A program made the position numbers and the translations under genes. This document shows positions 39,664-59,876 of a stretch of DNA of 64,000 nucleotides, in pieces. The DNA lies in assembly GCA_016931155.1 (NCBI GenBank), contig JAFGFJ010000006.1:141115-205114 (forward strand). The letters are read 5' to 3'. How positions within the stretch are numbered: the first letter of the stretch is position 1; every line of letters starts with the position of its first letter. The DNA is from Candidatus Dojkabacteria bacterium. GTDB taxonomy: Bacteria; Patescibacteriota; Dojkabacteria; B142; JAFGFJ01. Below the pieces are notes generated by a model. That model was not told where the DNA came from. It saw only the letters and a program-made list of their open reading frames with translations, and made no database searches.

Positions 39664-40455
39664 TTGGCTCATAGAAAAAGAAAAGATATGGGAAAAACAA
39701 ATACGGTTGATCTTCTTTTTGAACTGATAAAAACCAATTTTAAACTCAGGTACAACAATTCAGTACTGGGTTTTGTCTGGGTTCTTCTAAAGCCATTTTT
39801 AACATTTTTAGTTTTGTACATTGTTTTTTCCAACTTCAGGGGGAATTCGTCCATCGATAATTACACTATTTATCTTCTATCGGGAATAATACTTTTTACT
39901 TTTATTAACGAAGGAGTACTTTTTGGACTAAACTCTCTCCTTGATAAAGCAAACATTATTCTTAAAGTTAATTTCAATAAGATAATTGCAGTGCTCAGTT
40001 CGGAGATCATGGCTCTGGTAAATTTTCTGATCAATCTTCTGATTTTGTCTATCTTTATTATTTTTAATCCAGTAAACATTTCTGTTCTGAGTTTTTTTTA
40101 CTTATTGTTCATACTTTTTGTAATCTCGTTAGGATTAGTTTCAATTTCTTTGTTCTCCAGTATTCTTATCTTAAAATTCAGGGATTTGCAGAATATTGCT
40201 GAACTTGCAATGCAACTTTTATTTTATGGTTCAGCTATTTTTTATCCCGTAGAGCAAATCCCCGGGAGGTTTCAATGGCTTATTAAACTGAATCCACTCT
40301 ATAATCTGATTGATGCCGCAAGAAATGCTCTTGTGCAGGGGGAGATTATCAATACGAAAGAAGTGCTGATCATTTTTTTTGTTATTGTTTTCTTCTTCTC
40401 AATTGGGGCAATCTTCTTTTCCAGGAATGTAAAAAAGGTAGCTGAATACTTCTAA
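39664..40455 (+). CDS. ABC-2 type polysaccharide/teichoic-acid exporter permease (Wzm/TagG-like)
   Basis: 263 aa and 6 TM. The N-terminal LIKTNFKLRYNNSVLGFVWVLLKP is typical of ABC-2 permeases. Confidence 0.7.
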   Translation: MAHRKRKDMGKTNTVDLLFELIKTNFKLRYNNSVLGFVWVLLKPFLTFLVLYIVFSNFRGNSSIDNYTIYLLSGIILFTFINEGVLFGLNSLLDKANIILKVNFNKIIAVLSSEIMALVNFLINLLILSIFIIFNPVNISVLSFFYLLFILFVISLGLVSISLFSSILILKFRDLQNIAELAMQLLFYGSAIFYPVEQIPGRFQWLIKLNPLYNLIDAARNALVQGEIINTKEVLIIFFVIVFFFSIGAIFFSRNVKKVAEYF

Positions 40456-40456
40456 T

Positions 40457-41326
40457 ATGGGAAATCTATTCGAACCAAAGGTCTCAATTGTAGTAGTGAA
40501 TCTCAATGGTGAAGATGATACTTTCGAATGTGTGGACTCATTGAAAAAGATTGGCTACAAGAATTATGAAATTGTTGTTGTTGATAATGGCTCTTCAAAG
40601 AAGAATTACGAAAGACTTAAGAAAAACTTAAAAGGCGTAACAATTCTCAGGAAAGAGGAAAATCTGGGTTTTACGGGAGGCTATAATGTTGGTATAAGAT
40701 ACGCAAAGGCATCAGGTTCCAGATATGTTGCCATATTAAATAACGATACTGTGGTAGATGAAAAATGGCTTTCTGAATTTGTAAAACTTGCTAAAGAAGA
40801 AAAGAAATTTGGAGTGATAGGGTCAAAATCGTGTTACTACGGTCAAAGAGAAATTATCCAGACCGCTGGTCTTGCCTTCAATAAGTTCTGGGCTACTTTT
40901 TATGAAATCGGAAACGGTCTTAGAGATGAGGATCATTATAATGAAAACAGAGAAGTAACAGCTGTGAGTGGAGTTTCTATGCTGATGGATTTAAAAAACC
41001 CGCTAGAGGATATATTATTTGATGAGGAACTATTTCTCTATTACGAGGATGTTGATCTATGTTTGAGAATGAAGAGAAATGGTTATAAAGTGCTGTATTG
41101 TGCCAAGTCAAAAGTCTATCATAAGATTTCAAGGACAGCCAAAAAGGTGAAAGGTCTTAGCTTGTATTGGGGGATAAGGAACAGGCTTAGAGTCATAAGA
41201 AGATACTATGGTTTTATTCCATATGTCTGGGTATTTATCAGACTTTTGGTAAAGGGGGTAGTAGATTTGTCTGTGATGGATAAGGTATCAGCTAAGGCTT
41301 ATTTTAGGGGATTATGTAATAAATAA
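40457..41326 (+). CDS. family 2 glycosyltransferase
   Basis: VSIVVVNLNGEDDT, VVVDNGS and ILNNDTVVDEKWL (DxD region). Confidence 0.8.
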   Translation: MGNLFEPKVSIVVVNLNGEDDTFECVDSLKKIGYKNYEIVVVDNGSSKKNYERLKKNLKGVTILRKEENLGFTGGYNVGIRYAKASGSRYVAILNNDTVVDEKWLSEFVKLAKEEKKFGVIGSKSCYYGQREIIQTAGLAFNKFWATFYEIGNGLRDEDHYNENREVTAVSGVSMLMDLKNPLEDILFDEELFLYYEDVDLCLRMKRNGYKVLYCAKSKVYHKISRTAKKVKGLSLYWGIRNRLRVIRRYYGFIPYVWVFIRLLVKGVVDLSVMDKVSAKAYFRGLCNK

Positions 41327-41454
41327 TGAAAAATTTAGTTGAGATAAAAAATCTTTCTAAGGTGTTTGAAGTACCAAGAGAGAAAAAACAGACCTTGAAG
41401 AGCCATTTTCTGGATTTATTTAGAAGAACGAGTAAGGAATTTATACTATTATAG
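41326..41454 (+). pseudogene. 43-codon remnant of an ABC transporter ATPase (Wzt/TagH-like) N-terminus
   Basis: MKNLVEIKNLSKVFEVPREKKQTLKSHFLDLFRRTSKEFILL then stop. It parallels the N-terminus of the full wzt-like gene on the opposite strand and is coupled to GT2 by a TAATG overlap. Confidence 0.5.
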
Positions 41455-41462
41455 TAAGGAAT

Positions 41463-42668
41463 CTATTGTTCCCATTTACTACTGACTAGGATATTCCCTC
41501 TTTGTCCGTTGTGAGGAGACTTAGTATTTACAGTAAAAATGGTTCCCTTGGGATAGAAGTCATAATACTTTGTCTCACTTTCACCAAATACAACAAAATT
41601 TACAAAGTACTTCCCCGATAACAGCGATGTATTATAGATATTAAACGAAATACTTCTTTTTTCCTTGTTTATTAATATCTTTGCGTACTTTGTATTTGTT
41701 CCGAATAAGTAGAAACCAGTCTTTTCATCATATATACCCAATCCTATGTGTAGGTTCTCGACGCCCTTATTTATTTTATAATCAATTCTGAACTTTATAT
41801 TATCACCCACTGTGAAGTTGTTCCCATCTTTTTTATTCTGATCTTCTATTGCTATTTTCGAAATTCTTACTTGTCCTGTGCCAGGCCTCTCTTTTTCTGG
41901 TGATCTATTTTCTGATTTTATTTCAGATTTATTGACCAATTCATGGTAGTGAAATATTATGTCTCTCACTTCCCCTTCTTTTGCAATTTTCCCGTCCACT
42001 AGTAGAACAGCTCTATCGGAAAACTCTTCTACTTGAGATAAAGAATGAGAAACAAATATGATTGTCTTTCCCAGCTTTTTCATTTTCCTAAAGTATTCAA
42101 AGCACTTTTCTTGAAAACCCATATCTCCAACAGCCAAGACTTCATCAAGTATATATATGTCAGCATCTGCTTTGATAGCTATTGAGAACGCTAGTCTCAC
42201 CTGCATTCCAGAAGAGAAGTTTTTAATGGGAACGTCTAGAAATTCTCTGATTTCAGCGAAATCAACAATCTCATTAAATTTTTCGTTGATAAATTTTCTA
42301 GTCATTCCAAGAATTGTTCCATTCAAGTAAATATTTTCTCTAGCACTTAATTCTGGGTTAAAGCCAACGCCAAGCTCTAAGAAGGGTATTATTTTGCCTC
42401 TCGTAACTATATTTCCTGAATCTGGAAGATATATTTGTGAAATAAGTTTTAACAAGGTCGATTTCCCGGATCCATTTTTTCCGATTATGCTGATAAACTC
42501 TCCTTTGTTTATTTCGAGAGTTAATCTGTCTATTGCTATAAATTTTTTTTTCCTTATTGGCCTGAAAAGATTGAAAAATCGAGATTTTATTGTGTCTCTT
42601 TTTTCACTGACTATTTCAAAACTTTTCGTTACATTATCTATTTTAATTGCTGTTTCAGTTTTCTTCAT
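41463..42668 (-). CDS. ABC transporter ATP-binding protein with C-terminal Wzt-like carbohydrate-binding domain
   Basis: Walker A GKNGSGKSTLLK, signature FSSGMQVRLAFS, Walker B ILDEVLAVGD, plus a ~150-aa beta-rich C-terminal domain. Confidence 0.8.
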   Translation of the reverse strand: MKKTETAIKIDNVTKSFEIVSEKRDTIKSRFFNLFRPIRKKKFIAIDRLTLEINKGEFISIIGKNGSGKSTLLKLISQIYLPDSGNIVTRGKIIPFLELGVGFNPELSARENIYLNGTILGMTRKFINEKFNEIVDFAEIREFLDVPIKNFSSGMQVRLAFSIAIKADADIYILDEVLAVGDMGFQEKCFEYFRKMKKLGKTIIFVSHSLSQVEEFSDRAVLLVDGKIAKEGEVRDIIFHYHELVNKSEIKSENRSPEKERPGTGQVRISKIAIEDQNKKDGNNFTVGDNIKFRIDYKINKGVENLHIGLGIYDEKTGFYLFGTNTKYAKILINKEKRSISFNIYNTSLLSGKYFVNFVVFGESETKYYDFYPKGTIFTVNTKSPHNGQRGNILVSSKWEQ

Positions 42669-42735
42669 TAGTGGTATTTTGTATAAATTTTATTCTTATT
42701 GAAATACAGAAGTCGATTTCACCAGTATGATTATT

Positions 42736-43686
42736 TTACTCTGATAATTTTCCTTTAATTTTTTGTAGAGAATTAATGACTTTCGTCAGACCAGTTTTTT
42801 GAGATACCTTAATTATGTGTTTATTTTTACTAAGAATTTCAGATAATTGCTCATTTTGATTCCTTAAAGAAGTTAATTCTTCTTGCTGTTCTACTGTTTT
42901 CCTTTCTAGATTATGCAAAAAAGTTAGCCTTTCTGTGAGATCGGGAGTTTCACTATAGCTAAAGATATTTTTGGGAATTCTACTTAAAGAGCTACGGTTA
43001 GAAGTCGTCAGATTAATGTAGTTTTGAAAAGAATCCTCGGCAAGCAGATACTGCTCTTTATAATATTTTGAGAATATTCTATCTTCAATATAACTTGGAT
43101 CTAAACCTTGAGATTGGATTGCGTCAAGCAAAGAATATAGTCCACGAAAAATTACAAAATCTCTTGGAATTGGGAAATTCCAAGTCCACTCATAATCGAT
43201 GTTATAAATAATTTTTCTATTTATTGTGAAATTATCGAGGTTCAGATCAAGAATTCCTGGTTTAATCCATGCAGTCTCTTCATTTAGGTGATGGCCAAAA
43301 ATATTATTAAACTCCTTATTTATAATGGGAGGTTTTTTTATCTGATCCAATTTGTTAATAATCTCTTCAAGATAAAACTTAAATAGTTCATCTATATCTT
43401 TATAATCTCTTTGTTGAACACTCCTATACATTCTATTAAGTAGATTCTCCCCATTTATATATTTAAAAATTACTCTGTTATCAACTATGTTAGGTTTTAA
43501 TATTTGAAAGGGGAGATGGTAACTCGAAAGGAGTTTGTATTTGTTGTAAAAACTTCTTAGGAATTGTAGAGATGAAGGGAATGCAATTTTGTGTACAAGT
43601 AGGGATGTGCCATTACTAACAAAAGCAGTCATTAATCTAAACTTTTCCTTTCTATTTTGGTTATGTCTTACGTATAAAACTTTCAT
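42736..43686 (-). CDS. hypothetical protein with C-terminal coiled coil
   Basis: 316 aa. No motif recognised. Sits in the glycan locus. Confidence 0.45.
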   Translation of the reverse strand: MKVLYVRHNQNRKEKFRLMTAFVSNGTSLLVHKIAFPSSLQFLRSFYNKYKLLSSYHLPFQILKPNIVDNRVIFKYINGENLLNRMYRSVQQRDYKDIDELFKFYLEEIINKLDQIKKPPIINKEFNNIFGHHLNEETAWIKPGILDLNLDNFTINRKIIYNIDYEWTWNFPIPRDFVIFRGLYSLLDAIQSQGLDPSYIEDRIFSKYYKEQYLLAEDSFQNYINLTTSNRSSLSRIPKNIFSYSETPDLTERLTFLHNLERKTVEQQEELTSLRNQNEQLSEILSKNKHIIKVSQKTGLTKVINSLQKIKGKLSE

Positions 43687-43695
43687 ATAACTTAC

Positions 43696-44586
43696 TTATT
43701 TCTTAATACTAATTTGAGACTTTTTTGCTACGATTAGAAATGCGTTAGAAAATATGTCAAAATACCCTGATTCAATTAATTGCCTTGCGACCCTTGCCTC
43801 ATTAAATAGTTCTGTTCTGTTGGTAGAATGTTTGGATGGATATATTCCTGCCTTCGGAAGAAAATTATTTGTGGGCAGATACTGGTCACTAAATATTTCA
43901 TCAGGAAAGTGATAGTGAGGTAGGGGATAATAGAAAAAGATATCTGAAAATCCTGTATCCTTGAGCATTTTACTGATTTCATCTTTACTGTAGGTTTGTA
44001 TGCCGTTATGTTTTGGGTACCCCTCGATACTCTCAAAAAACCCTACAGTGTGATCCTCTGGAGCTCCAGCCCAGTATTTTAGTCCAAACTTATTTTCTAT
44101 GGCAAGAATAAACTCACCATTTGTCTTCATAAGAGAACAGATTTTTTTGAGTAGCGTTAAGGCTGGATTTTTTGTTTTAATAAATAACCCTGAATATTCT
44201 AAGACACCGATAGCAGTGATAAAATCATACTTACTATCCGTTTCATATTTCATGACGTCGATGGGGAAAACCTTTAAATTTTTTAACTTTTTATATCTTT
44301 CTTTTATGATTTTTGCTCTTCTATCTGAAATTTCAATACAATCTACATGTTTCACTCTTGAGGTAAAAAGTCCTGTCAGTGCTCCACAGCCCCCGCCAAT
44401 TTCAAGCAAATTACCGCTTGAATGGAAATCATACCAATTAAGTAAGTTTTCTCTTCCTGGTGACAGATGAGCTATGAAAGGCCAAATCCCTGTTCTAATG
44501 AGATTATCCCTCTTTCGCTGTGATCCAACAGATTCCAGTAAAGCTTTTTCCACTTCATCCCCATCTGAATAAACCATAGTATTCAT
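43696..44586 (-). CDS. class I SAM-dependent methyltransferase
   Basis: LEIGGGCGALTGLF (motif I), CIEIS, and a typical fold length. Confidence 0.7.
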   Translation of the reverse strand: MNTMVYSDGDEVEKALLESVGSQRKRDNLIRTGIWPFIAHLSPGRENLLNWYDFHSSGNLLEIGGGCGALTGLFTSRVKHVDCIEISDRRAKIIKERYKKLKNLKVFPIDVMKYETDSKYDFITAIGVLEYSGLFIKTKNPALTLLKKICSLMKTNGEFILAIENKFGLKYWAGAPEDHTVGFFESIEGYPKHNGIQTYSKDEISKMLKDTGFSDIFFYYPLPHYHFPDEIFSDQYLPTNNFLPKAGIYPSKHSTNRTELFNEARVARQLIESGYFDIFSNAFLIVAKKSQISIKK

Positions 44587-44677
44587 ATTTGCTTAAGATG
44601 TTGTAATGTTATCACTAACTAGGACATTAAAAAATTGAATTGCTAAACCTTTGTTAATTAGATTCACTTTAAATGTG

Positions 44678-47600
44678 CTATATACCATTTAACTCACTGA
44701 AGGAGTTATTGTATCTTACTCTTTGCGTTGTGAATATATTTTGATCGGAATAAATTATTACTGGTCCTCCAGTTTGTTCATTGTATTGTGGAGTTATAGT
44801 CTGACCGGGGTTAACTCTTCCATCAAAGATAATAACGCCTTGAACCGTGATTATTACAATCGCTGTGGAATTAATCGATGGATTCCCAATAAGAATCCAT
44901 GCCTCTCTTATAACGCCACCCCCGTCACTGTCGTCATACCATGTATAGAACTGTTTCTTGTTTAATTTATTGTTATCAATAGATTTTGTTTCATTAAAGG
45001 AGTTGATATATCTGACTCTTTGTGTCGCATATATGGGTTGCGTACTAGTTACTACTATTGAACCTGTACAACATAGCTCATCCCATTGTACTGAGTTGCT
45101 ACTATTCGCATACACATTTATTACCTTATCGGGTTGTCCTGGAATTCTTAATGTGACCGATGTGTTTGAATCATTAGGATTGCCTATTAGTATGTATGCT
45201 TCTCTATGAATGCCTCCATTTTCGCTGTCATCGTACCAAGGGAAAAAGTGATTACTTTCTATATCTGAATTAGTTACAGCCATTATTTCGTTGAATGAAT
45301 CCATAAATTTAACTCTTTGAGAAGAATAAATATTTACTGGTATACCAGTACTTTTTTCTACAGCAGTTATCTTTACAGGGCCACCTCTTTGTTCGTCAAA
45401 TTGAAAACAAGTGCTTTCTCCGGGGGATGCAGACTGTGTATGTAATATAACTTGTCCGCTTGTATTTTTGAACTGAACTGTAACATCAACGTTTGCAGAA
45501 ACAGTTTCTGGTATTCCTGCGATGATCCATGCCTCTCTTACGACTCCATCGTCACTATCATCATACCAGGGGAAGTACAGCAAATTGGCTAACTCACTTG
45601 AAGGGAAACCCGTGATTTCTTCAAATGATTCGTTATACCTTACCCTTACCGAAGAGTAGATTGGTATACCGTTAGTACTGTTAACAACAATTGGTCCTCC
45701 GGACTGTTCATTAAACTGTGGAGTGATTCTTTCTCCTGGGGCTAACGTTTGATCTATTTCCAAGACACCTTTGTACCAAACCTCTATACTAGCAACTTCA
45801 GCTTGGCTTTGGTTTGCTATTATAAGCCATGCTTCTCTTGGTATACCAATGTCACTGTCGTCATACCATGGGAAGTAGTATTTTGTATCAAGATTTCTTT
45901 CAGTATATCCTACTAAGGAGTTGTCCAATTGCAGGAGCCCGTAACCGGTTTGTGTATCAAACCCTGATGATGCTACATCTTGTGCACTGCTCCTTAATCT
46001 AATATTAATATCTATTGGTGTTATGTTCGGGTGGATACTTTTCATGAGTGCAACCGCTGCACTCACCTGAGGTGCGGCAAAACTTGTACCAATTACTGTT
46101 GTAGGTGAAGTGTTTGAAGTGAAGGCATTGAAAAGGTTTACATTCGTTTCATCTGAACAGTTGTTTTTATTGGGATAGCATGAATAAGATTGTGATGCAA
46201 TTTGGGGTCCACTATCTCCAACAGGGGCAACAAGATCCAACTCGTCTCCATAGTTTGAGTAACTTGCACGGTTGTCATTCGCATCTGTCGCTCCGACTGC
46301 TATTACATTTGGAAATGAAGCAGGGAAGTAGTTTGCAATATCCGAGTTGTCATTTCCTGCCGCAGCTACAACAACAACTCCGGCATTGACAGCGTCATTA
46401 ATTGCCACTTGCATCATAGGGTCAGTCCCGACTCCTCTGAGGCTCATGTTTATAACATCAGCACCATTTGCTACAGCATATTCAATAGCCTGTGAAATTA
46501 CGAAAGAATCAGCAACTGTCCTGTAGTCTTTGCTTGAGTTTGAACACGTAAGATCAAGATTCCCGGAAGCATCCTGGCACATTGATCTGTCATTCGGATA
46601 AAAAACTTTAATTGGCATGATGCTTGCATTGTGTGCTATTCCAATTACCTTGTTTGGTGCAGTATCACCTGTTCTCCCCGCTAGAATTGTTGTAACAAGA
46701 GTGCCATGTCCATAGTCATCATTTGCATGGTCGATTTTGGCAAGCTCATTTGCATTACAGTCATTGGCAGGATTTCCATCAATAGCTCTAAGCATGCAAA
46801 AATAATCCTGCACGGCATCATATGGACTTACAATATTTACACCACTTAATTCTGAGGATTGTGAATATTGCCTTTCATAACCTTTATAACTGCCGTTTAC
46901 GAAGGTACCATCTTGTGTATTATTTGTTGGATACTCAAGGTAGATTCCATTAAATTTTCCAACAGTATAGGAGTTATCATTTCCAGCGTCATATACATAG
47001 TTTTCATAGGATGCCCCTGTATCAAGAACAGCAACAACCACGGAGGGGTCGCCTCCACAGGAGTTGTCACTTGTACATCCTCCCATTTCTTTCCATGCCT
47101 CAGGAAGTTTGGTTTTTTCAGCTGTCCAGTGAGTAGCAGTATCATAGTCGCTAGGGATAGATCTTTCAGGGTCAGTATTGTTCCAGCTCTCAGTTTTGTA
47201 AATATAGATTGGCTGAGGATTAGTCTCGGGAGCCACAAGAAGAATCTCTCCTATGAGTTGATCTATTTTTGAATTGTCGACCTTATAGATTATTTTATTT
47301 CCGAGTTCTGCTAAGCTCTCTACACCACGTGACAGTGTTAGTAATTTTTCTTTGGTGAGTGCGTTCGATTGGGAAGAGTTGAGTGCTACCCGTGCCTTTG
47401 TTCCATCAATAATGTAGTTTCTATTGTCTATTAAATTGTTCCTTTTAGCATCAGCTGATCGAAGATTGGAGTTTAGTGGTTTCATTTGGACTGCACGAGA
47501 AGCAACAGTTTCTAGTTGATTGTAGATTCTTCCAGGACAGGCTGTTGCCGCAAGATCTCTGTGTCCGTAGAGTCCAGTTCCGCTTTTTGGGTCACCACCT

Positions 47601-48637
47601 TGCCATACTGCATTGAAATTGTTCAGTTGGGATAAAGCAGATATGAGTTTCGTGAGAGCTTCCATTGAGGCCTGTGTGGGATCCTGCGAGACATAGTTCC
47701 CAAGGATTGAGATTCCTATGCTTCCGGTGTTTGGGACTGCATGAGCACCAACAACTCCGTTTCCTCCAGATCTGCCTTCATAAATATTTCCATACGGATC
47801 AATCATGTAGTTGTAGCCAACATCAGTCCAGGTTCCTTTGCTCGGATCAGTGCAGTTTGGCCATGAACCCGAGTTATCTGAACATCTGTTGTAGTGATAA
47901 TTATAAACTGCCATTACCGTGTTTTTTGGATTTGCCATGTCAACACTTGTTGCTGTGTGATGAACAACTATGCGGTTAACATTTGCGATCGTCGGAGCCC
48001 ACGGGCTTGCTGTAGGAGCTCCCCATTCTTCTCTTGTAATGAGATCGAACCCCATTTGTGAAAATAATTTTTCCTTGTAAGCTCTTTCTGCCTGAGTGCT
48101 TGCAAATTCCTCTGGTATAGAAAAGGAAGTGTCTGAAGTGCTGTTGAATTCATATTTGCTGATAATAAATTCTTTTTCTCCATCGTAATAGAACTCTATC
48201 TCTTTAACTCCTTCTGAAAATATGAACAAATCAGAAACACTGTTCTTGCTTGTATCAAAGGAAGTGTCGTCTCCCATAAATACATCTTCGCTCTCAATCT
48301 TGAGGTACTTGGTAAAAGTATCATCTCCTTTTTTTACTCTGACTATTATTCCTTCAATATTTCCAGAGATGGAGAAGCCGTAGTAGGTTTTATCGAGGGT
48401 TTCAATTTTTGTTGGTGTGCTCCCTGAGAGGAAAATTCCTGCCTTTTGAATTAAGCCTGCTTCTTCGTATGCTTCGGGATCAGAGAGATTTGTACCTCCC
48501 ATTTTCGGGAAAGAGGAGTCTTCCGCATTTACTTTCTGAATTGGAGCAGGGGAGAAACTCAATGTCAGTACGAAGGTCAGAAAGATAATGAACAGATGTT
48601 TTGTTTTTTTTCTGGCTTCGAAAAAAGATTTATGCAA
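44678..48637 (-). CDS. secreted multidomain protein: PGRP/Amidase_2 N-acetylmuramoyl-L-alanine amidase + subtilisin-like S8 peptidase + four ~100-aa C-terminal repeats
   Basis: Signal peptide. Amidase_2: VVHHTATS, GYNYMIDPYGNIYEGR, GAHAVPNTGSIGISILGNY, ACPG. S8 triad: VAVLDTGAS, HGTLVTTILAG, GTSFAAPQVSAAVALM. Then four repeats each beginning [YF]FPWYDDSDxGxxREAWI. Confidence 0.8.
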   Translation of the reverse strand: MHKSFFEARKKTKHLFIIFLTFVLTLSFSPAPIQKVNAEDSSFPKMGGTNLSDPEAYEEAGLIQKAGIFLSGSTPTKIETLDKTYYGFSISGNIEGIIVRVKKGDDTFTKYLKIESEDVFMGDDTSFDTSKNSVSDLFIFSEGVKEIEFYYDGEKEFIISKYEFNSTSDTSFSIPEEFASTQAERAYKEKLFSQMGFDLITREEWGAPTASPWAPTIANVNRIVVHHTATSVDMANPKNTVMAVYNYHYNRCSDNSGSWPNCTDPSKGTWTDVGYNYMIDPYGNIYEGRSGGNGVVGAHAVPNTGSIGISILGNYVSQDPTQASMEALTKLISALSQLNNFNAVWQGGDPKSGTGLYGHRDLAATACPGRIYNQLETVASRAVQMKPLNSNLRSADAKRNNLIDNRNYIIDGTKARVALNSSQSNALTKEKLLTLSRGVESLAELGNKIIYKVDNSKIDQLIGEILLVAPETNPQPIYIYKTESWNNTDPERSIPSDYDTATHWTAEKTKLPEAWKEMGGCTSDNSCGGDPSVVVAVLDTGASYENYVYDAGNDNSYTVGKFNGIYLEYPTNNTQDGTFVNGSYKGYERQYSQSSELSGVNIVSPYDAVQDYFCMLRAIDGNPANDCNANELAKIDHANDDYGHGTLVTTILAGRTGDTAPNKVIGIAHNASIMPIKVFYPNDRSMCQDASGNLDLTCSNSSKDYRTVADSFVISQAIEYAVANGADVINMSLRGVGTDPMMQVAINDAVNAGVVVVAAAGNDNSDIANYFPASFPNVIAVGATDANDNRASYSNYGDELDLVAPVGDSGPQIASQSYSCYPNKNNCSDETNVNLFNAFTSNTSPTTVIGTSFAAPQVSAAVALMKSIHPNITPIDINIRLRSSAQDVASSGFDTQTGYGLLQLDNSLVGYTERNLDTKYYFPWYDDSDIGIPREAWLIIANQSQAEVASIEVWYKGVLEIDQTLAPGERITPQFNEQSGGPIVVNSTNGIPIYSSVRVRYNESFEEITGFPSSELANLLYFPWYDDSDDGVVREAWIIAGIPETVSANVDVTVQFKNTSGQVILHTQSASPGESTCFQFDEQRGGPVKITAVEKSTGIPVNIYSSQRVKFMDSFNEIMAVTNSDIESNHFFPWYDDSENGGIHREAYILIGNPNDSNTSVTLRIPGQPDKVINVYANSSNSVQWDELCCTGSIVVTSTQPIYATQRVRYINSFNETKSIDNNKLNKKQFYTWYDDSDGGGVIREAWILIGNPSINSTAIVIITVQGVIIFDGRVNPGQTITPQYNEQTGGPVIIYSDQNIFTTQRVRYNNSFSELNGI
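44681..45895 (-). repeat. four tandem ~100-aa protein repeats (FPWYDDSD...REAW...PG...GGP...QRV(R/K)...SF.E) of unrecognised family
   Basis: Repeat boundaries are about 45593-45895, 45266-45592, 44966-45265 and 44681-44965. Conserved positions are W-Y-D-D-S, REAW, PG, E(Q)xGGP, QRV and SF.E. Confidence 0.6.
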
Positions 48638-48780
48638 TTTGTGTTTTTCTTATAAGGTATTTTATCAGAAGTTTGCGTCGGATTGTAGAGGATGCATGGA
48701 TTGTACACATCTCAAATACTGAGGTGCAAACTAATTAGTCTACTAATAAATACCTGTTTTGGAGTCTAAAACCGAACAGC

Positions 48781-50964
48781 CTACCATCTTCTTAGATTTC
48801 TGATGATTTGAACGCCAGTCCTAATGAAAGAATGAGCAGGTTTAATCTTCTCTACTACCCCAAGAACTTTATCTAGTACTTTGTACCTGAGACGTTCAAG
48901 GTTCCTTTTTTGAATGGAATGCCCCTTAACATCTTTATAAAGTGATTCCTGCAAAAGTGTAAAATCATTATTAATTATTTTAGAAACACCAAGAAAACGC
49001 GTGTAGATTTTATTGTAGACTTCCTTATATTTTTCTATCATTTCTTCCAGGCTTGTAATTTTTGTACTGTCCAGATTTTTATATATTTGTCTTAACATTT
49101 TTCTATCTTTATCTATATCTAAGAGCAATCTTTTAAGATTCTTATCTGTTTCGAATGTCAGACCAAATTTATGCTTTTTTATTCTTGATCCAATTGCTCC
49201 AATATTTCTACCAATAGCTGGGATACCCAGGCTTACACTTTCCGAAAGAGTAAAGCAAAAAGACTCTGGAACTTTTGTGGGGAAGATGGAAATATCAACT
49301 TTATATTTTTCTATTAGTTTTGAAGGGTCAGAATTTGAGTACGAATCACTTGTATAGTGTATCCCTCTTTTTAGGCCTTTTTGTCTCAAATATCTTTTTA
49401 CTTCTGGATCAACGATGCCTATTAAATGCCAGGAAAATCTGTTTCTTAATTTGGTATCTGCGATTAGATTTACGAAAGTCTTGAGACCTTTTTGAAACGA
49501 GCATGGTCCAATATAGGCAATGCTTAGTTTTTTCTTTTCATGTTCAAGATTCTTGTTGGATTTTAGTAATTTTATGCCATGTTCAATTACTATTTGCTTC
49601 GTGTTTATATTTAAGACCTCGTTGTATTTCTTATAAAGATACTCTGAAGGGTAAATTATCAAATTTAATTTGGAAATTAGATTTTCTATATGACTTTTAA
49701 AACTAGAATCATTTACTTTGGAGAGAAAACCCTTTTTTGTATGTTCAATAAGTTGTTCTGCACTTGAAATTAGAAGAACATCATGTGCAGTAAAAACCGC
49801 TTTAATCCCAAGCTTTTTGTGAATACCAAGAAGGTTGATGTTTGCGTTTAGCAAATGATGAAAATGAATTAGTCCAATATTAAAAAATCTGCAAATACTT
49901 GTTATTACTTTTTCTTGAAATATTTCGTTTGCTTCATTCGTCTCATTTACTAAACTAGTGTTTAGTATTAACTTTCCTTCGGAAAAAATGTCTACAAAGA
50001 TATGATCGTTTCTGATTGATAGTGTAATAAAATTTATAGTTTTGTTCCCGTCAATTAGATGCTGAATATGAACTTGTGTTCCGCCAATCGATTCCTCAAC
50101 GTGCTTAACAAAAAGAACGTTTTGAGATTTCCTATTTAATTTTAATTTTTTGCAAAGAAAACTGGCAATTGTGGTTTGTGCATCAAGTGGATCCAGTTTA
50201 ATGTATTTATTAATATGTTTTTGGAAGTCCGGGTGTTTGTCTAATAACTTCCGCATTTTTTCTTCTGAGAAGGATTTGCCGGTCTGGAAACTGACGTTGC
50301 CTTTATGGTATATAAATGTTTTTGTATCGGCAACATTGATATAACCGGCCTTGATTGCTCGCATTGAGAAGTCATTTTCTTCACCATATCCTTTTCCAAA
50401 TGTTTCTTCATCAAAAAGCCCGACTTCTGTGATCACCTGTCTTTTGATATACATACAAAAACCTATAGCGGTGGGGATTGAAAGGATTTCATTACTTGAA
50501 GACTTTTTGGCTATATCCGACATATCTTCTATTTCAAAATCTTTTGGGAGTTCATTGTTTGTGTTTTTATTGGGGAGCGATAAGATTGAGGCATTGTTGC
50601 TCATTGGTGTGACTGTTGCAATTGAATCACTTTTATACGCTGTGATTATGAGATTTTGCAACCATCCCTTTGTTACTTCAGTATCACTATTGAGAAGTAC
50701 TACATCGTTCTTTGTAAGGGTCATACCTCGATTACAATTGCCTACAAAACCCAGATTTTTCTTATTAAAGTAGACTTTGACATTAGGGTGGCTTAGGCTC
50801 CCTAGATACTTTTTAACTCTTGAATCGGGGCTTTTGTCATCTATTAAAATTAGTTCGTATAGCTCAGCTGGAGTATTACATATGACGCTGTTCACACATT
50901 TCATCAGATACTCGTAGGCATCATAGACAGGAATTATAATAGATACTTTAGTTTTTACACTCAT
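48781..50964 (-). CDS. bifunctional glycosyltransferase (N-terminal GT2, C-terminal GT4/group-1)
   Basis: N-terminal VSIIIPVYDAYEYL...LILIDDKSPD...LLNSDTEV (GT2). C-terminal ESFCFTLSESVSLGIPAIG (Ex7E motif of GT4). Confidence 0.75.
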   Translation of the reverse strand: MSVKTKVSIIIPVYDAYEYLMKCVNSVICNTPAELYELILIDDKSPDSRVKKYLGSLSHPNVKVYFNKKNLGFVGNCNRGMTLTKNDVVLLNSDTEVTKGWLQNLIITAYKSDSIATVTPMSNNASILSLPNKNTNNELPKDFEIEDMSDIAKKSSSNEILSIPTAIGFCMYIKRQVITEVGLFDEETFGKGYGEENDFSMRAIKAGYINVADTKTFIYHKGNVSFQTGKSFSEEKMRKLLDKHPDFQKHINKYIKLDPLDAQTTIASFLCKKLKLNRKSQNVLFVKHVEESIGGTQVHIQHLIDGNKTINFITLSIRNDHIFVDIFSEGKLILNTSLVNETNEANEIFQEKVITSICRFFNIGLIHFHHLLNANINLLGIHKKLGIKAVFTAHDVLLISSAEQLIEHTKKGFLSKVNDSSFKSHIENLISKLNLIIYPSEYLYKKYNEVLNINTKQIVIEHGIKLLKSNKNLEHEKKKLSIAYIGPCSFQKGLKTFVNLIADTKLRNRFSWHLIGIVDPEVKRYLRQKGLKRGIHYTSDSYSNSDPSKLIEKYKVDISIFPTKVPESFCFTLSESVSLGIPAIGRNIGAIGSRIKKHKFGLTFETDKNLKRLLLDIDKDRKMLRQIYKNLDSTKITSLEEMIEKYKEVYNKIYTRFLGVSKIINNDFTLLQESLYKDVKGHSIQKRNLERLRYKVLDKVLGVVEKIKPAHSFIRTGVQIIRNLRRW

Positions 50965-52519
50965 GGGTATTAATTTTAAGTTGTTTTAGACTCCTATTAT
51001 ATTGAATTAGCATAACAGAATTAAGTACATATCCACTATGAGTCTCTTGTTCTATACATATAGTTTCGCTTGCTGGCAGATAAGAACTTTCAGCCAGTAT
51101 AAAATAATCATTATAAGGACTGTTATTGTATCTGATTTTATCTCTTTCCAGGATTGTAGCAACAAAAGCTGGCTCCAGGTGATTAATAATGTTTCCTTCT
51201 GAGGTGTCATATAGTTCAACGGGAAACATGATTTCTCCTTTCGCCTTTTTGTCTATTTGTGATTCGAACTTATAATATGATGCAGTTGTAATGTAGACTC
51301 TATCCCAAGTAAATAGGCTTTCCTCTCCCGTAGAAAAAAAATAACCATTGAGAAAAATTACGAATAGTATTACCCAAGTCAAAATATTTACTTTTTGGGT
51401 TTTAAACACAATTGACCATATTCCGATTGCCGAAAGAATATATACGTAGGGAATTAAATAAAGTAAAAATCTTCTATCATTCCAGTTGTACAAGAATACC
51501 CAGAAGATAACAGTGAAGAAAAAAAATAAAAAAATATTTAGACAAAGAACCCTGTGATTATACTGTTTTAACAGAATATTTATAAAGCCAATGGCTAATA
51601 GCAGCAAGAGTGGTATTCCAAATATACTGATGGCACCTGCCAGATAAAACAAAACAGAATTTGCGTGGGGAATAATTAACTCTAATTGCTTAACATTAGT
51701 ATAAAGAGGATTCCTGAATAAAAGAAATTTATATAAAAACCATGGTCCTGTAGTTATAAGGATAATCTCAGTATGGAAAAAAATCTGTTTTATGAATAAC
51801 TTTATACTTTTCTTGTCTTTTGCTTTGTTCTTAATTACTTGTTTTAAGAAGAAATCAGTAACTAATACTAATTCGTAAATTAGGATAAGGAAAAATGAAA
51901 AATTCTGAAAAGAGGTTGATATGCATAAAAACAATATAGCAAAATTACTTTTTCCCTTTATCAAAAATAGAACAGCCAGGCAAATAAATAAGATTGCATA
52001 GTAATCAGATAAAATGAAATTACTAAAGTTTTGCATCGTAAAGTTGCAGAAAAAAAGTATACTAACTGCGGAAGTTATCGCAAAAAGTACATTTGTTTTT
52101 TTAAGTTGAATTTTCCTGCCAAAAACTTCAATTGTTTGTGTCTGTTTCTCTTTTGCGGAGAATCTCTTTAGTAACCCATCAATGCATGCCCACAAGGTAA
52201 AAGTTATCCCTGCAAAAACCATTTGGTTTAAGAGAGGAAGCATTCTCAGTGTATTGACTTCTGAGAGTGCTCTAATAATAAGAGGAAGTCCGGGATTTCT
52301 AAAAGAAATTGTTGAGTTCTCTCCAAATCTTAGACCATTAGCAATCCAATCAAATCCATCTGACGTGAAGTATTTATAAGTCCTTAAGAATTCATTATCA
52401 GAATTTAAATTGGTGATCAGGAAAAATTTGGCGATTAAAATAACGACCGCACTGAGAGCGAATAAGAACAATAAATGTTTTTTGGAATTTTTTTTGAGTA
52501 GCTGATTAAGTCTGCTCAT
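50948..52519 (-). CDS. polytopic membrane protein with C-terminal soluble domain, possibly GT-C glycosyltransferase or polymerase-like
   Basis: 523 aa with more than 10 TM helices and a ~120-aa C-terminal non-membrane domain. A TSDGFDW acidic motif lies in the first loop. Architecture-based call only. Confidence 0.4.
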   Translation of the reverse strand: MSRLNQLLKKNSKKHLLFLFALSAVVILIAKFFLITNLNSDNEFLRTYKYFTSDGFDWIANGLRFGENSTISFRNPGLPLIIRALSEVNTLRMLPLLNQMVFAGITFTLWACIDGLLKRFSAKEKQTQTIEVFGRKIQLKKTNVLFAITSAVSILFFCNFTMQNFSNFILSDYYAILFICLAVLFLIKGKSNFAILFLCISTSFQNFSFFLILIYELVLVTDFFLKQVIKNKAKDKKSIKLFIKQIFFHTEIILITTGPWFLYKFLLFRNPLYTNVKQLELIIPHANSVLFYLAGAISIFGIPLLLLLAIGFINILLKQYNHRVLCLNIFLFFFFTVIFWVFLYNWNDRRFLLYLIPYVYILSAIGIWSIVFKTQKVNILTWVILFVIFLNGYFFSTGEESLFTWDRVYITTASYYKFESQIDKKAKGEIMFPVELYDTSEGNIINHLEPAFVATILERDKIRYNNSPYNDYFILAESSYLPASETICIEQETHSGYVLNSVMLIQYNRSLKQLKINTHECKN

Positions 52520-52847
52520 TGCTAATTAAATAGGGCTTTTATCATTATAGATTCAATTTCTCGTAAGATATTAGGTATATTATTCCTAATATTTTCTGTT
52601 TGCAATTTCCGGTTCTTGGTTAGTAGACGTATAACAACACTGCCTAGGAAGGCATTTTGTATTTCTAATGACTTCCAAAGGCAATTTACAATTTAGCTCA
52701 ATATGTCCACTCCTCATATGATATCCCATCAGATCAATATTTGTCGGGTTTTCGAGTTTACTCTAAACGATATTGCGACGTTGACATTACCATTTTAATT
52801 AAATACTATTCTTAAGAATTTCGCCAACTCCTTAAATTTAGAGACTA

Positions 52848-53591
52848 ATGGGAAATCTATTATCAATAATCATTCCAGCGTGGAATGAAGAAAATACTTT
52901 AGAAAAACTGGTTTCAAAGGTTAGGAAAATACGTCTTCCAGATGGAATTGAGAAGGAAATTATAATAATAGATGACTGCTCGACAGACAGGACGTTAGAG
53001 ATAATAAAGAATCTCGGGGAAAAGCATAAAGAGATCAAAGGACTTTCAAACTTAAAAAACAGCGGAAAATCGCAAACCGTAAAGAAAGGTATCCTTGCTT
53101 CAAGTGGTGATTACGTTGTTATTCAGGACGCAGATTTAGAATATGAGCCGGAAGAAATTCCTGAGATGCTTAAACTGTTGATAGATAAAGAATACGATGC
53201 CGTATACGGAAACAGATTTGGAAAGAAGAATAAGGTCATTTACTGGCAGAACTATTTTGGAAATAAAATGTTGACAGTCTTCTCAAATATCTTTACTTTT
53301 CCGAAACTAAAAACGTGGATACCGGATATGGAGGTCTGCTATAAATTAGTGAGAGGAGATGTAATGAGACAGATAGCAAAGATGATCGTATCGACAAGCA
53401 GGTTTGGACTCGAACCAGAAATTACTGCAAGACTTGCCTCATATAAATCAAGGGGAAAAAGAATAAAACTTGGCATACATCCTATTAGCTATTATCCGAG
53501 ATCAATTCAAGAAGGGAAGAAAATGAATGCGCTCAAACACGGATTTGAAGCACTGGTAGAAATTATAAAGTTTAATCTTCTTAAGAATTAG
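52848..53591 (+). CDS. GT2 polyprenyl-phosphate sugar synthase (DPM1/GtrB-like)
   Basis: LSIIIPAWNEENTL, IIIIDDCSTDRT and VVIQDADLEYEPEEI are typical of dolichyl/undecaprenyl-phosphate mannosyl/glucosyl transferases. Confidence 0.8.
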   Translation: MGNLLSIIIPAWNEENTLEKLVSKVRKIRLPDGIEKEIIIIDDCSTDRTLEIIKNLGEKHKEIKGLSNLKNSGKSQTVKKGILASSGDYVVIQDADLEYEPEEIPEMLKLLIDKEYDAVYGNRFGKKNKVIYWQNYFGNKMLTVFSNIFTFPKLKTWIPDMEVCYKLVRGDVMRQIAKMIVSTSRFGLEPEITARLASYKSRGKRIKLGIHPISYYPRSIQEGKKMNALKHGFEALVEIIKFNLLKN

Positions 53592-53615
53592 TTTTGCTCT
53601 GGTTTTTGTATCCCA

Positions 53616-54140
53616 CTATTTATAGGGTGCTTTTTTCCTAACCAGTAAAGTTTCTGATTCAGGATATGAGAATAGAACCTCAACTTCTTTTTCATTTATG
53701 TCCTTTCTGAATACATAGGATAATTCTTCGCCTCTGTTTTTGTCCGTGTCGATGTTGTTTGTTTCTATGTAGTCTAATTTAAACTTCTCTATGTAATAGT
53801 GTACTGGAGGTGCTAATCTCCAGTTCGTAGACAGACTGATCTTATTGTTGCTCTCATTAAGACTCAAAGTCTTTACATCAGTGATCATATTTTTCACATC
53901 ACAATTACTTTTCCAGGAGATTGTATAAGTAAAATTAATTGAAACCAAAGATATAATTAGAATAAAACCGGCTAATGCGTAACCTGAAAAGAGTGCACAC
54001 TTTTTTGCAGTATTTGTGAGCAAAGTCAGTGAGTTCAGTGCACTTACGAAACAGAAGAAAAATAAAGGAATTAGAAATATTGCTGTTCTCTCGATCAAGA
54101 ACTTTGTTCCAAGTATGTGGTGTTGAAGGATTGTACTCAA
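53616..54140 (-). CDS. membrane protein, likely C-terminal part of a frameshifted GT-C-like glycosyltransferase
   Basis: Two or three TM helices, then a ~100-aa soluble domain. The reading frame stays open upstream to 54311 and encodes further TM helices, overlapping the end of ORF 54245-55099. Confidence 0.45.
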   Translation of the reverse strand: MSTILQHHILGTKFLIERTAIFLIPLFFFCFVSALNSLTLLTNTAKKCALFSGYALAGFILIISLVSINFTYTISWKSNCDVKNMITDVKTLSLNESNNKISLSTNWRLAPPVHYYIEKFKLDYIETNNIDTDKNRGEELSYVFRKDINEKEVEVLFSYPESETLLVRKKAPYK

Positions 54141-54244
54141 AATACATATTGTCAGAATCGCAGTGGTTGAAATAACCGGATAATTCTTTTTGGATAAATT
54201 TTTACTTACGAGATAAAGGGTGGTAATAGAAGTAATAATATATA

Positions 54245-55099
54245 TCAGAAAATTAAAATGGTAAGTATTGTTTCGTGAGTTGGAGATAAATTGAATTTGT
54301 AAAGAGACGCTCTAACAAGAGAGCCAATGGTATCAGAAACAAAGTTGTTATCACCCCCATAATAAAGCAACTTTCTCTTTACGACCCTCCCCAAGGGGAT
54401 AAGTATTGATAAGAATGTTGTAACAGTAATTATTATTATTGGATAGCTGTTATATAATATTTTTTTCACTCTACCAAAAAAATTCTGTTTCATCCTTATG
54501 TTTTCAAATATAGACAGGCAAAATAGAAAGGAAATCAGAGCAATGAAATAATTCAATAATGTAAAGTTGGTTAATACCGAAAGCCAGCTCGTTATAAGAC
54601 TGGCGAAAAGATAGATCCTCTTTTTTCGGTTCGATAAATATTCGATAAGAAAGTAAACGCTTGAAGCAACGAGTCCTGCCGCAAGTGCATAACCTCTTGC
54701 CAGGGAGAAAAAATCGAGGAGAAATATGTTTAAGTTTAGGAGTATAAAAGAAGTTATTTTAGCAGTTTTGCTTTTTACAAATTTTTCAACAAAAATGAAA
54801 GTGAAAAATAAATAAAGAAGGTGACCGATAAGACTTGGAAGTCTTAAGACAAATTCTGTGTTTCCAAAAAAGTTGTAAAAGATTTTAACCAATATGGTAT
54901 TTACAATGTGATTATTTGCGATTTCTGCCGAAAAATTATTTGTAAGGATATCGAAAATATTTGTATGTACAAAAGTTTGAAATGTATATGCTTCGTCAAA
55001 AGTCAGAGAAAGATTGATTGCTCGATAGGTTGTGTAAGTAAAAAGTATTATTGAGATTAACACCATCGTGAACTTTACAGGAGAGATTCTCATTTGCAA
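54245..55099 (-). CDS. membrane protein, likely N-terminal part of a GT-C-like glycosyltransferase
   Basis: 284 aa with 8 or more TM helices. LTFDEAYTF in the first loop resembles the GT-C DE motif. It ends abruptly inside a hydrophobic segment. Confidence 0.45.
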   Translation of the reverse strand: MQMRISPVKFTMVLISIILFTYTTYRAINLSLTFDEAYTFQTFVHTNIFDILTNNFSAEIANNHIVNTILVKIFYNFFGNTEFVLRLPSLIGHLLYLFFTFIFVEKFVKSKTAKITSFILLNLNIFLLDFFSLARGYALAAGLVASSVYFLIEYLSNRKKRIYLFASLITSWLSVLTNFTLLNYFIALISFLFCLSIFENIRMKQNFFGRVKKILYNSYPIIIITVTTFLSILIPLGRVVKRKLLYYGGDNNFVSDTIGSLVRASLYKFNLSPTHETILTILIF

Positions 55100-55271
55100 A
55101 CTTTTTAATATAATTCTGTAAGACTGTCAGTGCTGGAAAAGCGGTCACCAGTAAATCTACTTTTTTCTTTGCTGTTCAAATAGGTTTTCAGCCCTTTGTA
55201 GATTGGAGTATTCTACCAGACAAGTGCCATACAGGTAAGTAAATGATGTAAAACAAAAATTATTTTTCGCA

Positions 55272-55634
55272 TTGAAATATTCCAACAAAAAGGGTATTAT
55301 CCGAATCCGTATATCTTTATTCTATAAGTTAGCCAACAAAACAGTGGGTCAGAAAATTGTTGATGCAGGAAAATGTGACTACTGCAGAGATAGAAAAAAA
55401 GCAGTTTACTACACAGGACTATATTCTCAAGATGAGGATTTAATGGAAATACACTGCAATACTTGCAGGGCATCCTGGGAGGCGGATGGCACTCCTAGGG
55501 CAATACCATCACAATCAAAATTGGAGCAGTTGGGAGTGTTTAGTGAAGTTGTAGAAAATAGTTTGCCTTTTACTCCAGGAACCAAAGGTGAATGGTTTTG
55601 CAATTATGTGGGATCAGCAGAAGCTTTGGGTTGA
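55272..55634 (+). CDS. hypothetical zinc-ribbon-like protein
   Basis: CDYC...CNTC pairs spaced about 25 aa apart. Weak; may not be expressed. Confidence 0.3.
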   Translation: MKYSNKKGIIRIRISLFYKLANKTVGQKIVDAGKCDYCRDRKKAVYYTGLYSQDEDLMEIHCNTCRASWEADGTPRAIPSQSKLEQLGVFSEVVENSLPFTPGTKGEWFCNYVGSAEALG

Positions 55635-56909: not shown

Positions 56910-57007
56910 AAAGATATTTTACTGTCTGGTTATTGAGTTGTCCCCAACAACACGATAGTACTCAAAAACTAATAGAAAAAAAAGTAAGCCGGATAATAAA
57001 GAGGCTT

Positions 57008-58205: not shown

Positions 58206-58320
58206 TCTATGGTTAATAAATGCATAACTTCTTTGCTTATGCGTACTATTTTATCTATAGATCGAATGAGCGCCAATATCAAGGAAGTATATATTATTCC
58301 GGTTTATTTGAAAAACTCAA

Positions 58321-59700: not shown

Positions 59701-59761
59701 AGGGCAAGTATATTTGAATATACAATCGGTGTAAATTAACCTGAAAAATGAAAACAATTCA

Positions 59762-59876
59762 TAAACCTGTAATTGAAGCTCGTAGAGTATTGGCAAAATC
59801 AGGCTTAAATTTGCGATTTAAGCTCACAGAATCTTGGTATAACCAATCTTAAACCTGCAAGTGAAGTACGTAGAGT
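59762..59876. promoter_or_regulatory. 27-bp imperfect direct repeat pair flanking an 8-bp-stem hairpin, upstream of the phosphomannomutase gene
   Basis: taaacctgtaattgaagctcgtagagt (59762-59788) and taaacctgcaagtgaagtacgtagagt (59850-59876) match at 23 of 27 positions. GCTTAAAT-ttgcg-ATTTAAGC sits at 59803-59823. Confidence 0.35.

Follow-up and report, generated by a model that had tools for sequence, protein, structure and literature searches.

A predicted exported fusion of a peptidoglycan amidase, a subtilase and four ASRAH domains in a surface-glycan locus of Candidatus Dojkabacteria

Introduction

Several bacterial wall enzymes combine a peptidoglycan amidase, or a subtilisin-like (S8) protease, with modules for binding or processing. 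Here we describe a protein from Candidatus Dojkabacteria in which both enzymes are joined in one chain with four C-terminal ASRAH domains. The DNA analyzed, referred to below as the window, is a stretch of 64,000 nucleotides (assembly GCA_016931155.1, contig JAFGFJ010000006.1, positions 141,115 to 205,114 of the forward strand). An open reading frame (ORF) with a TTG start codon at 44678-48637 on the minus strand encodes a product of 1319 residues. The product is identical to a protein from a metagenome-assembled genome that NCBI lists under the name [quoted passage not shown], a name that carries nothing more. Candidatus Dojkabacteria are candidate division WS6 within the candidate phyla radiation (CPR). 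A large part of bacterial diversity belongs to the CPR, or Patescibacteria, and little is known of how these cells build, remodel and use their envelopes or breach those of their hosts.

Among the closest described systems is a set of secreted proteins from Chloroflexi. De Souza, Iyer and Aravind (2009; PMC2739507) defined the ASRAH domain as a member of the ASRT/TM1070 superfamily and reported a secreted ASRAH family in Chloroflexi that is fused to N-acetylmuramoyl-L-alanine amidases and "always" occurs as tetrads. The domain is marked by a conserved tryptophan at strand 1 and a near-invariant asparagine that ends strand 2. TM1070 is a tetramer with a binding cleft partly at the subunit interface, and from this arrangement the authors predicted that ASRAH tetrads bind sugar or peptidoglycan and make up a tetramer-like unit. 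The window protein resembles the Chloroflexi proteins in its predicted secreted N-acetylmuramoyl-L-alanine amidase, its four tandem ASRT/TM1070-like beta-sandwiches, its fold and motifs, and its adherence to the tetrad rule. In contrast, no subtilase or prodomain-like domain is described there, whereas the window protein has an S8 domain between amidase and tetrad, comes from a CPR lineage, and has repeats too diverged for the Pfam ASRT model.

Catalytic PGRPs, among them insect PGRP-LB, amphioxus PGRP3 (4z8i) and the T7 lysozyme family, share the His/His/Cys zinc site and the tyrosine and threonine positions of the window amidase, but they are immune proteins or small proteins of a single domain, and no protease is attached to them. 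WprA of Bacillus subtilis is a wall-bound S8 precursor that is processed into two stable wall proteins, CWBP23 and CWBP52. Like the window protein it is an S8 precursor of the secreted type whose N-terminal pro-region is of exceptional size; unlike the window protein, for which processing is a prediction, its pro-region is not an enzyme and it has no ASRAH anchor.

Bifunctional autolysins and endolysins, such as the Staphylococcus amidase-glucosaminidase Atl, the CHAP-Amidase_2-SH3b enzyme LysK of a phage and mycobacteriophage LysA, also unite two wall-cleaving activities with a wall-binding module, and Atl is split in two by proteolysis. To our knowledge, however, the peptidases in this group are specific for peptidoglycan (CHAP, M23, NlpC/P60), processing is left to other proteases, and none has a subtilase prodomain. 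The parts of the window protein are of known kinds: a PGRP-type amidase, a subtilase, an ASRAH tetrad and, taken as a whole, a modular wall hydrolase. What appear to be undescribed are the fusion of Amidase_2 to S8, on which our literature search found no paper, a conserved amidase/S8 gene pair, and a subtilase-prodomain-like domain on a peptidoglycan amidase.

Results

Two catalytic domains that look intact in one chain predicted to be exported

The amidase domain matched Amidase_2 (PF01510) with a Pfam score of 63.4 bits against a cut-off of 26, and the protease domain matched Peptidase_S8 (PF00082) with 130.2 bits against 21.8; residue ranges for these and other features are given in Table 1. 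Among 5.8 billion proteins, the two domains were found in the same order in only 17 clusters at 90% identity, and the clusters for which the source names an organism are from Dojkabacteria/WS6. An initial annotation made from the DNA sequence had called the architecture unusual, which these numbers bear out.

In the amidase we located the motifs HHTATS at residue 226, GYNYMID at 274 and GHRDLAATACPG at 358. The residues H226, H227, Y275, H359, T365 and C367 are invariant in all 17 members compared, that is, the window protein and 16 homologues with both domains. The zinc ligands H226, H359 and C367, together with Y275 and T365, align with PGRP3, and the closest solved structures are animal PGRPs (4z8i, E 1e-18). 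The roles of these residues in zinc binding and catalysis are ones we assume from PGRP-LB and T7 lysozyme; T365 occupies the place, two residues ahead of the cysteine, at which this amidase type has a threonine or lysine. Invariance of the ligands and of Y275 and T365 indicates selection for catalysis, and the domain looks intact as a predicted N-acetylmuramoyl (MurNAc)-L-alanine amidase.

In the protease, the motifs VLDTGAS at 537 (D539), HGTLV at 644, AAAGN (N762) and GTSFAAP at 850 (S852) supply a complete Asp-His-Ser triad and an oxyanion asparagine. D539 and H644 are invariant in the 17 members, S852 is missing from a single truncated protein, and N762 is present in 14. The best solved match is subtilisin Carlsberg (E 1.5e-21), and Foldseek also matched subtilisins. 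The domain contains an insertion of about 105 residues between Asp and His and three further cysteine pairs of the disulfide type. A mycosin of type VII secretion (TIGR03921) was rejected as an identity because the score of 155 bits falls short of the curated equivalog cut-off of 278.75, and no ESX context was seen among the window genes. The NCBIfam labels mycosin, dentilisin and PatA were likewise rejected, since all scored far below their own cut-offs.

The N-terminus, KKTKH-LFIIFLTFVLTLSF-..VNA followed by ED, reads by eye as a Sec signal peptide, and the homologues likewise start with a hydrophobic segment. In the family alignment, the two members of each of five cysteine pairs are either both present or both absent. 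Because of these co-varying pairs and the N-terminal signal sequence we read the protein as extracytoplasmic; both features fit an exported, disulfide-bonded protein. Between the putative signal peptide and the amidase lies a domain with beta strands at 77-162 in an AlphaFold2 (AF2) model (predicted local distance difference test, pLDDT, about 70). It had no Pfam match even at relaxed thresholds, and similar sequences were found only among family members. Taken together, the signal peptide, the amidase motifs, the complete triad and the picture of a secreted protein with two catalytic modules were all rightly seen in the initial annotation; the degenerate motifs that it had named as grounds for abandoning this view are absent from the window protein.

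The amidase and the protease form a conserved pair

A scan of species-representative genomes, which used amidase-derived patterns only and gives no true frequency of the fusion among Dojkabacteria, found further fused copies (loci L006, L007 and L011). Related genomes encode the two enzymes as neighbors. At L009, L010 and L012 an amidase gene is divergent from a gene for a pre-pro-S8 protein, and at L013 and L038 an S8 gene is followed by an amidase gene. A search for stand-alone amidases returned about 45 clusters of 500-600 residues with the same N-terminal domain and amidase and a C-terminal domain of about 110-150 residues, and at two of three further loci of such amidases (L087 and L088) an S8 gene is divergently adjacent. 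In a neighbor-joining tree of amidase domains, built without bootstrap, 15 fused members cluster in one clade, with the split-gene amidases as its sister group; this would fit fusion or fission having happened once.

The split pairs of Dojkabacteria/Patescibacteria (for example P0246-P0295 with L009, L012, L087 and L088) share with the window protein an orthologous N-terminal domain, the PGRP amidase and a prodomain-like C-terminal domain, and an S8 of the same clade adjoins them, often in glycan loci. They differ in consisting of two genes, in an S8 with its own signal peptide and prodomain, and in C-terminal modules that are FG-GAP or other repeats. Since relatives encode amidase and protease as neighbors, the fusion exposes a conserved enzyme pair. 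We conclude that Dojkabacteria and their relatives have conserved the amidase and the S8 protease as a functional pair, of which the window holds the fused version. The two-enzyme protein had been recognized in the initial annotation; the gene pair in other genomes had not.

The C-terminal modules vary among orthologues, which carry canonical ASRAH tetrads, FG-GAP/VCBS repeats, an H-type lectin, a dockerin or TIG domains, while P0009 and P0011 end in a diverged ASRAH tetrad. Swaps of the ASRAH tetrad for other binding modules could reveal the glycan that is recognized.

Some of these loci have further features. In the complete Dojkabacteria genome KatS3mg085 (AP024679.1; L008, 6001-8497) a fusion orthologue is broken into several short ORFs, as a pseudogene or through frameshift errors. 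On another Dojkabacteria contig the fusion gene is followed immediately downstream by a further large S8 gene (L004, 12431-15721), whose product has a Fervidolysin_NPro-like prodomain. A fused Amidase_2-S8 protein of 1019 residues, with family 4 glycosyltransferase (GT4) genes on either side, was found in a metagenome-assembled genome (MAG) labelled Candidatus Nanoarchaeia (L011, 5350-8409), where either a mis-binned CPR contig or gene transfer would account for it. In an Acidimicrobiia MAG (L038, 4166-9436) GT4, S8 and Amidase_2 genes stand in a row on one strand; the association of S8, amidase and glycosyltransferase is therefore not confined to the CPR. The split-type S8 proteins of L009 (5815-8502) and L012 (2193-4214) end in a repeat of about 45 residues, ..RLYQAVRGxDGxSILTRYTTDGxxWSxW.., with about six to eight copies in L009, which looks like another interchangeable C-terminal module.

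A domain that resembles a subtilase prodomain lies between the enzymes

The two enzymes and the repeats named in the initial annotation are present, but a domain between the enzymes had been overlooked. It was seen in the AF2 model and in profile-profile comparisons with hhalign. The model places strands at 414-420, 439-445 and 448-454 and helices at 426-432 and 455-468 (pLDDT 63-86), and a disordered stretch follows at 479-527 (pLDDT below 50). The junction reads WNNTDPERSIPSDYD..HW..EK..PEAW and contains the cysteine pair Cys521/Cys527. Across the family alignment an invariant ...E..L..PE..IQPNYxY is followed by WDNxDPxRSxPxDY...HWxLEKIxAPEAW, a stretch of the kind with which mature subtilases typically begin.

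Comparisons with relatives gave the same placement. The junction aligns with the boundary between prodomain and mature enzyme in the pre-pro-S8 proteins P0128 and L009 (Prob 95-97%); among the related pre-pro-S8 proteins, one has a Pfam match of the Fervidolysin_NPro type and another a sub-threshold match. The segment after the fused amidase matches the C-terminal domain of the stand-alone amidases (hhalign Prob 96%, E 1.5e-9, 129 columns), and that domain in turn matches the N-terminal prodomains of S8 proteins (Prob 89%, E 2e-6, 92 columns); across the links to S8 prodomains Prob was 89-94%. Controls with reversed alignments and unrelated profiles gave 0.1-0.3%. Further, the stand-alone amidases stop two to eight residues past a ...LDPxVxxaxLNxxY motif that is equivalent to Y480. 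Foldseek alignments of a 920-residue model to unprocessed pro-subtilases were about 130-150 columns longer than those to mature enzymes; this extra length is the usable signal, as the search could not isolate the prodomain. As to SPOR, a rival identity for the middle domain, neither the linker nor the tails of the stand-alone amidases matched the Pfam model at E up to 5-10.

Stand-alone amidases thus end in a prodomain-like domain, near the position at which the fusion joins the mature protease, and autoprocessing near Tyr480 is predicted for this reason. An aromatic P1 residue would suit subtilases. With moderate confidence, based on alignments and models, we consider the middle domain to be subtilase-prodomain-like and predict self-cleavage of the fused precursor immediately past Y480. 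With the same moderate confidence, the predicted products are an amidase-prodomain fragment and an S8-ASRAH fragment, of which the former would be able to stay docked.

The C-terminal repeats are ASRAH domains

The protein ends in four head-to-tail units of about 100 residues. The initial annotation had described them as repeats of an unrecognized domain. That they lack a Pfam model holds, as there was no match at E up to 10 with the ASRT model included; the domain itself had already been named ASRAH in the 2009 paper, which found its tetrads on secreted amidases. Two checks suggested at that time, a search with the repeat as query and the structure prediction of one repeat, support this identity. 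A profile of 46 units (A1), run against a library of 1.84 billion proteins, retrieved 2,733 representatives at 50% identity, 762 of them at E <= 1e-30, and tandem arrays of an ASRAH-type unit were found in Chloroflexota and other phyla. An AlphaFold model of one repeat had a pLDDT of 89, and three chains of 1nc7 stood at the top of the Foldseek results, in agreement with the beta-sandwich fold of the ASRT/TM1070 type. In alignments A1 and A4 the tryptophan of the WYD motif and an asparagine (N22), which would correspond to the two marker residues of the domain, are conserved at 90% or more. The A1 profile reached ASRT 2ii7 at E = 0.4 only, which falls short of a sequence-profile match; the authors who defined the domain also relied on transitive searches (PMC2739507). 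We assign the repeats to the ASRAH domain, within the ASRT/TM1070 superfamily. In the literature searched, no paper after 2009 uses the term.

The arrangement of the repeats is regular. Exactly four contiguous full units are present in 146 of 162 carriers and exactly eight in another 8, the exceptions being mostly fragments. The array is at the extreme C-terminus in 147 of the 162, with about one residue between units. Among 61 proteins the partner domains are M23, Amidase_2, S8, GH18, GH16, M14, CAP, sortase and Ig-like spacers, with a glucosaminidase in P0070. Given the tetrad count, the C-terminal place and the wall-enzyme partners, this pattern is what would be expected of a wall- or glycan-anchoring module. 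Position-specific identity of the repeats gave a partial signal across the family (34-43 of 72 on the diagonal) and none for the window protein's own repeats. The new context of the tetrad strengthens the case for a general wall-glycan anchor with a role comparable to that of SLH or CWB2 triplets.

The fusion gene lies in a surface-glycan locus

Pfam scans of the window confirmed that the gene sits in the middle of a glycan-biosynthesis locus, as first annotated. The locus contains genes for Wzm, family 2 glycosyltransferases (GT2s), Wzt, a methyltransferase, a GT2-GT4 protein, a Wzx-like flippase, GtrA and PGM/PMM, and the fusion gene is located between the methyltransferase gene and the GT2-GT4 glycosyltransferase gene. 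This association is kept in homologous loci. The first five that we examined are all in or beside glycan clusters; at L002, for example, the fusion homologue lies between a GT2 gene and genes for UDP-GlcNAc 2-epimerase, a nucleotidyltransferase and a TagF-like protein. In a crude test, tblastn with the window's glycan genes as queries found glycan genes at 11 of 15 fused or split loci compared with 13 of 70 generic Amidase_2 loci (Fisher p = 8e-5). By Pfam, GT4 genes are neighbors at L011 and L038, and glycan genes are present at L087 and L089.

The exporter genes of the window locus are of two types. One set encodes an ABC-type exporter, Wzm/Wzt, in which a Wzt_C domain is present; the other encodes a Wzx-like flippase (Polysacc_synt) accompanied by GtrA and a GT2. 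This points to two parallel routes of glycan export. Four ORFs of the locus had no Pfam match and could encode novel glycan-processing or membrane proteins.

Proposed function and competing explanations

The domain identities, the catalytic residues, the tetrad rule, the relationship between gene pair and fusion, and the association with glycan loci are observations. From them we tentatively propose, at somewhat less than an even chance, that the protein is a secreted, self-processing, wall-anchored and protease-coupled autolysin precursor that acts on the producer's own envelope and is tied to surface-glycan synthesis. Secretion, cleavage, complex formation, ligand and target wall are the inferred parts of this proposal. 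The chain would be exported by the Sec pathway and would fold. The S8 domain would then cut its own chain just past the prodomain-like domain, at about Tyr480, in the manner of subtilases. This would yield one piece with the N-terminal domain, the PGRP-type MurNAc-L-alanine amidase and the prodomain, and another with the mature S8 and four ASRAH domains. The prodomain would probably keep the pieces together temporarily and restrain the protease until it is degraded. The ASRAH tetrad, probably as a single pseudo-tetrameric sugar-binding unit, would keep the complex attached to a wall glycan, for which the product of the surrounding locus is the likeliest candidate. There the amidase would strip stem peptides from peptidoglycan and the protease would cut wall-associated peptides or proteins, with remodelling or turnover of the producer's envelope as the outcome. 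The gene neighborhood favors the producer's own envelope over that of another cell as the target, whereas the "heavily glycosylated wall" of the initial annotation was conjecture.

Several observations count against this proposal. The variety of C-terminal modules could equally reflect adaptation to foreign surfaces or to a variable glycan of the producer, and the clustering of envelope genes in small CPR genomes may have causes other than function. The window also encodes an AmiC/CwlC-type Amidase_3 protein of 458 residues near genes for RNase Y and parA/parB; the fusion is therefore not the genome's only peptidoglycan amidase, and division would not depend on it alone. At one locus of a stand-alone amidase, S8 genes are missing from the neighborhood. 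As to self-cleavage, the 920-residue AF2 model is of moderate confidence (mean pLDDT 62.5), and the middle domain had no match to Pfam I9 or Fervidolysin_NPro at relaxed thresholds. Profiles of the linker (A3) and of the linker with amidase tails (A5) gave only chance matches to PDB sequences, and hhalign found no match to an approximate sequence of the subtilisin BPN' prodomain. Finally, the beta-alpha-beta-beta-alpha-beta fold class is common to SPOR and other domains.

The main rival takes the same activities as directed outward: an episymbiotic CPR bacterium would use the protein, secreted or displayed, as a weapon or feeding tool, opening the peptidoglycan and surface proteins of a host or prey cell and taking up the peptides and amino sugars. 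We regard this as unlikely but worth serious attention, and it is likewise doubtful that a host surface glycan is recognized by the C-terminal module, which varies and in this case is the ASRAH tetrad. Both lytic activities look intact, the swapping of C-terminal binding modules is a common trait of proteins whose targets keep changing, and the Amidase_3 is already present for the cell's own division. Moreover, CPR bacteria are widely held to be host-dependent. However, what is conserved is an association with the genes by which the producer makes and exports its own glycan. ASRAH tetrads elsewhere, in free-living groups such as Chloroflexota, Thermoleophilia and Dormibacteraeota, are joined to ordinary autolysin-type enzymes of bacteria that are not known predators, and Pfam scans of the window genes revealed no secretion-system or toxin/immunity context.

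A bolder reading, which we hold to be rather unlikely, would make the pair, fused here and split elsewhere, an unrecognized "protease-gated autolysin" that Dojkabacteria share with related CPR bacteria. The prodomain grafted on the amidase would dock it to the partner protease, so that each enzyme would control the timing or location of the other; interchangeable glycan-binding modules that match the neighboring locus would position the complex; and the module would perhaps be used at the site of host contact. In any case the locus offers a concrete enzyme module that can be tested and that a whole CPR class has conserved, in which an amidase is coupled to a subtilase via a prodomain-like domain. 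Self-processing, if true, would allow compact delivery of two wall enzymes in a fixed ratio and would be a new use of a subtilase prodomain.

A separate question, orthogonal to that of host attack, is whether the protein works as one uncleaved chain. The middle domain would then be a generic RNP/SPOR-like domain or a spacer that belongs to the amidase, the S8 would fold without a prodomain, and the whole would be a tandem bifunctional hydrolase, on the model of autolysins that join an amidase to a SPOR domain. The missing Pfam and PDB links to I9 or fervidolysin prodomains and the wide occurrence of the fold in unrelated domains speak for such a chain, as does the presence of the domain in stand-alone amidases whose partner S8 has an N-terminal prodomain of its own. 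Against it, the profile-profile matches to S8 prodomains are far above the reversed controls, and a Pfam SPOR match is lacking too. The domain also occupies exactly the position of a prodomain, followed by the canonical mature N-terminus and a disordered linker, and the fused proteins have no other prodomain. We therefore consider an uncleaved chain improbable.

Still less probable, in our judgement, is a protein that is mainly a surface protease, with the PGRP domain as a peptidoglycan-binding or targeting module, or a large pro-region, whose catalysis is dispensable. Many animal PGRPs are non-catalytic binders. The orthologues P0144 and P0107 (locus L089, 8001-11657) retain the prodomain, the S8 and four ASRAH domains, yet their amidase region is degenerate, without His/Cys ligands or a Pfam match; they show that the S8-ASRAH half can stand alone. 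By contrast, the zinc ligands, Y275 and T365 are invariant in all 17 members with an Amidase_2 match, the window protein included. At L089, a gene for a DsbA-like thioredoxin lies directly upstream of an orthologue of the P0144/P0107 type, and GT2/GT4 genes lie downstream.

An artefact, in which two genes were mis-assembled or read through, could draw only on the separate amidase and S8 genes of related genomes and is excluded for practical purposes, because 16 collinear fused homologues come from independent assemblies and sources; in addition, a second, separately assembled contig holds the identical 1319-residue protein with the same neighbor genes, the amidase domains of the fused proteins group in a clade of their own, and at the fused junction there is neither the signal peptide nor the start that an independent S8 gene would require. 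Mis-assembly, which the initial annotation had named as a way in which it might fail, was accordingly not borne out.

Coordinates and composition

Table 1. Features of the window protein and its surroundings, in window coordinates (strand in brackets)
Feature	Residues	Coordinates	Basis
Predicted Sec-type signal peptide, predicted cleavage after VNA	1-38	48524..48637 (-)	Read from sequence
Family-specific all-beta N-terminal domain	~73-165	48143..48421 (-)	AF2 model
PGRP-type Amidase_2 domain	219-370	47528..47983 (-)	Pfam
Subtilase-prodomain-like beta-alpha-beta-beta-alpha-beta domain, ends Q475-P476...Y480	~405-480	47198..47425 (-)	AF2 and hhalign
Flexible junction and mature-protease N-terminus	481-531	47045..47197 (-)	pLDDT, alignment
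Peptidase_S8 catalytic domain	532-900	45938..47044 (-)	Pfam, fold matches, residue conservation
ASRAH repeat 1	921-1020	45578..45877 (-)	
ASRAH repeat 2	1021-1130	45248..45577 (-)	
ASRAH repeat 3	1131-1229	44951..45247 (-)	
ASRAH repeat 4, end of protein	1230-1319	44681..44950 (-)	
Surface-glycan biosynthesis/export locus		39664..59796 (.)	Pfam scans
ABC-type exporter, Wzm/Wzt		39664..42668	
ORF without Pfam match		42736..43686 (-)	
ORF without Pfam match		50948..52519 (-)	
ORF without Pfam match		53616..54140 (-)	
ORF without Pfam match		54245..55099 (-)	
Wzx-like flippase, GtrA and GT2		55614..58205	
Amidase_3 gene (458 residues)		25995..27371 (-)	

A scan for promoters and terminators from 41 to 53 kb found promoter-like sites at the frequency expected from shuffled sequence and no convincing terminator flanking the fusion gene. 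The base composition of the gene stands out from its surroundings. The ORF has a GC fraction of 0.403, compared with 0.367 for the window, and its amidase segment reaches 0.467; the GC maximum of the window is at 46001-48000. This raised GC may reflect amino-acid composition or foreign origin.

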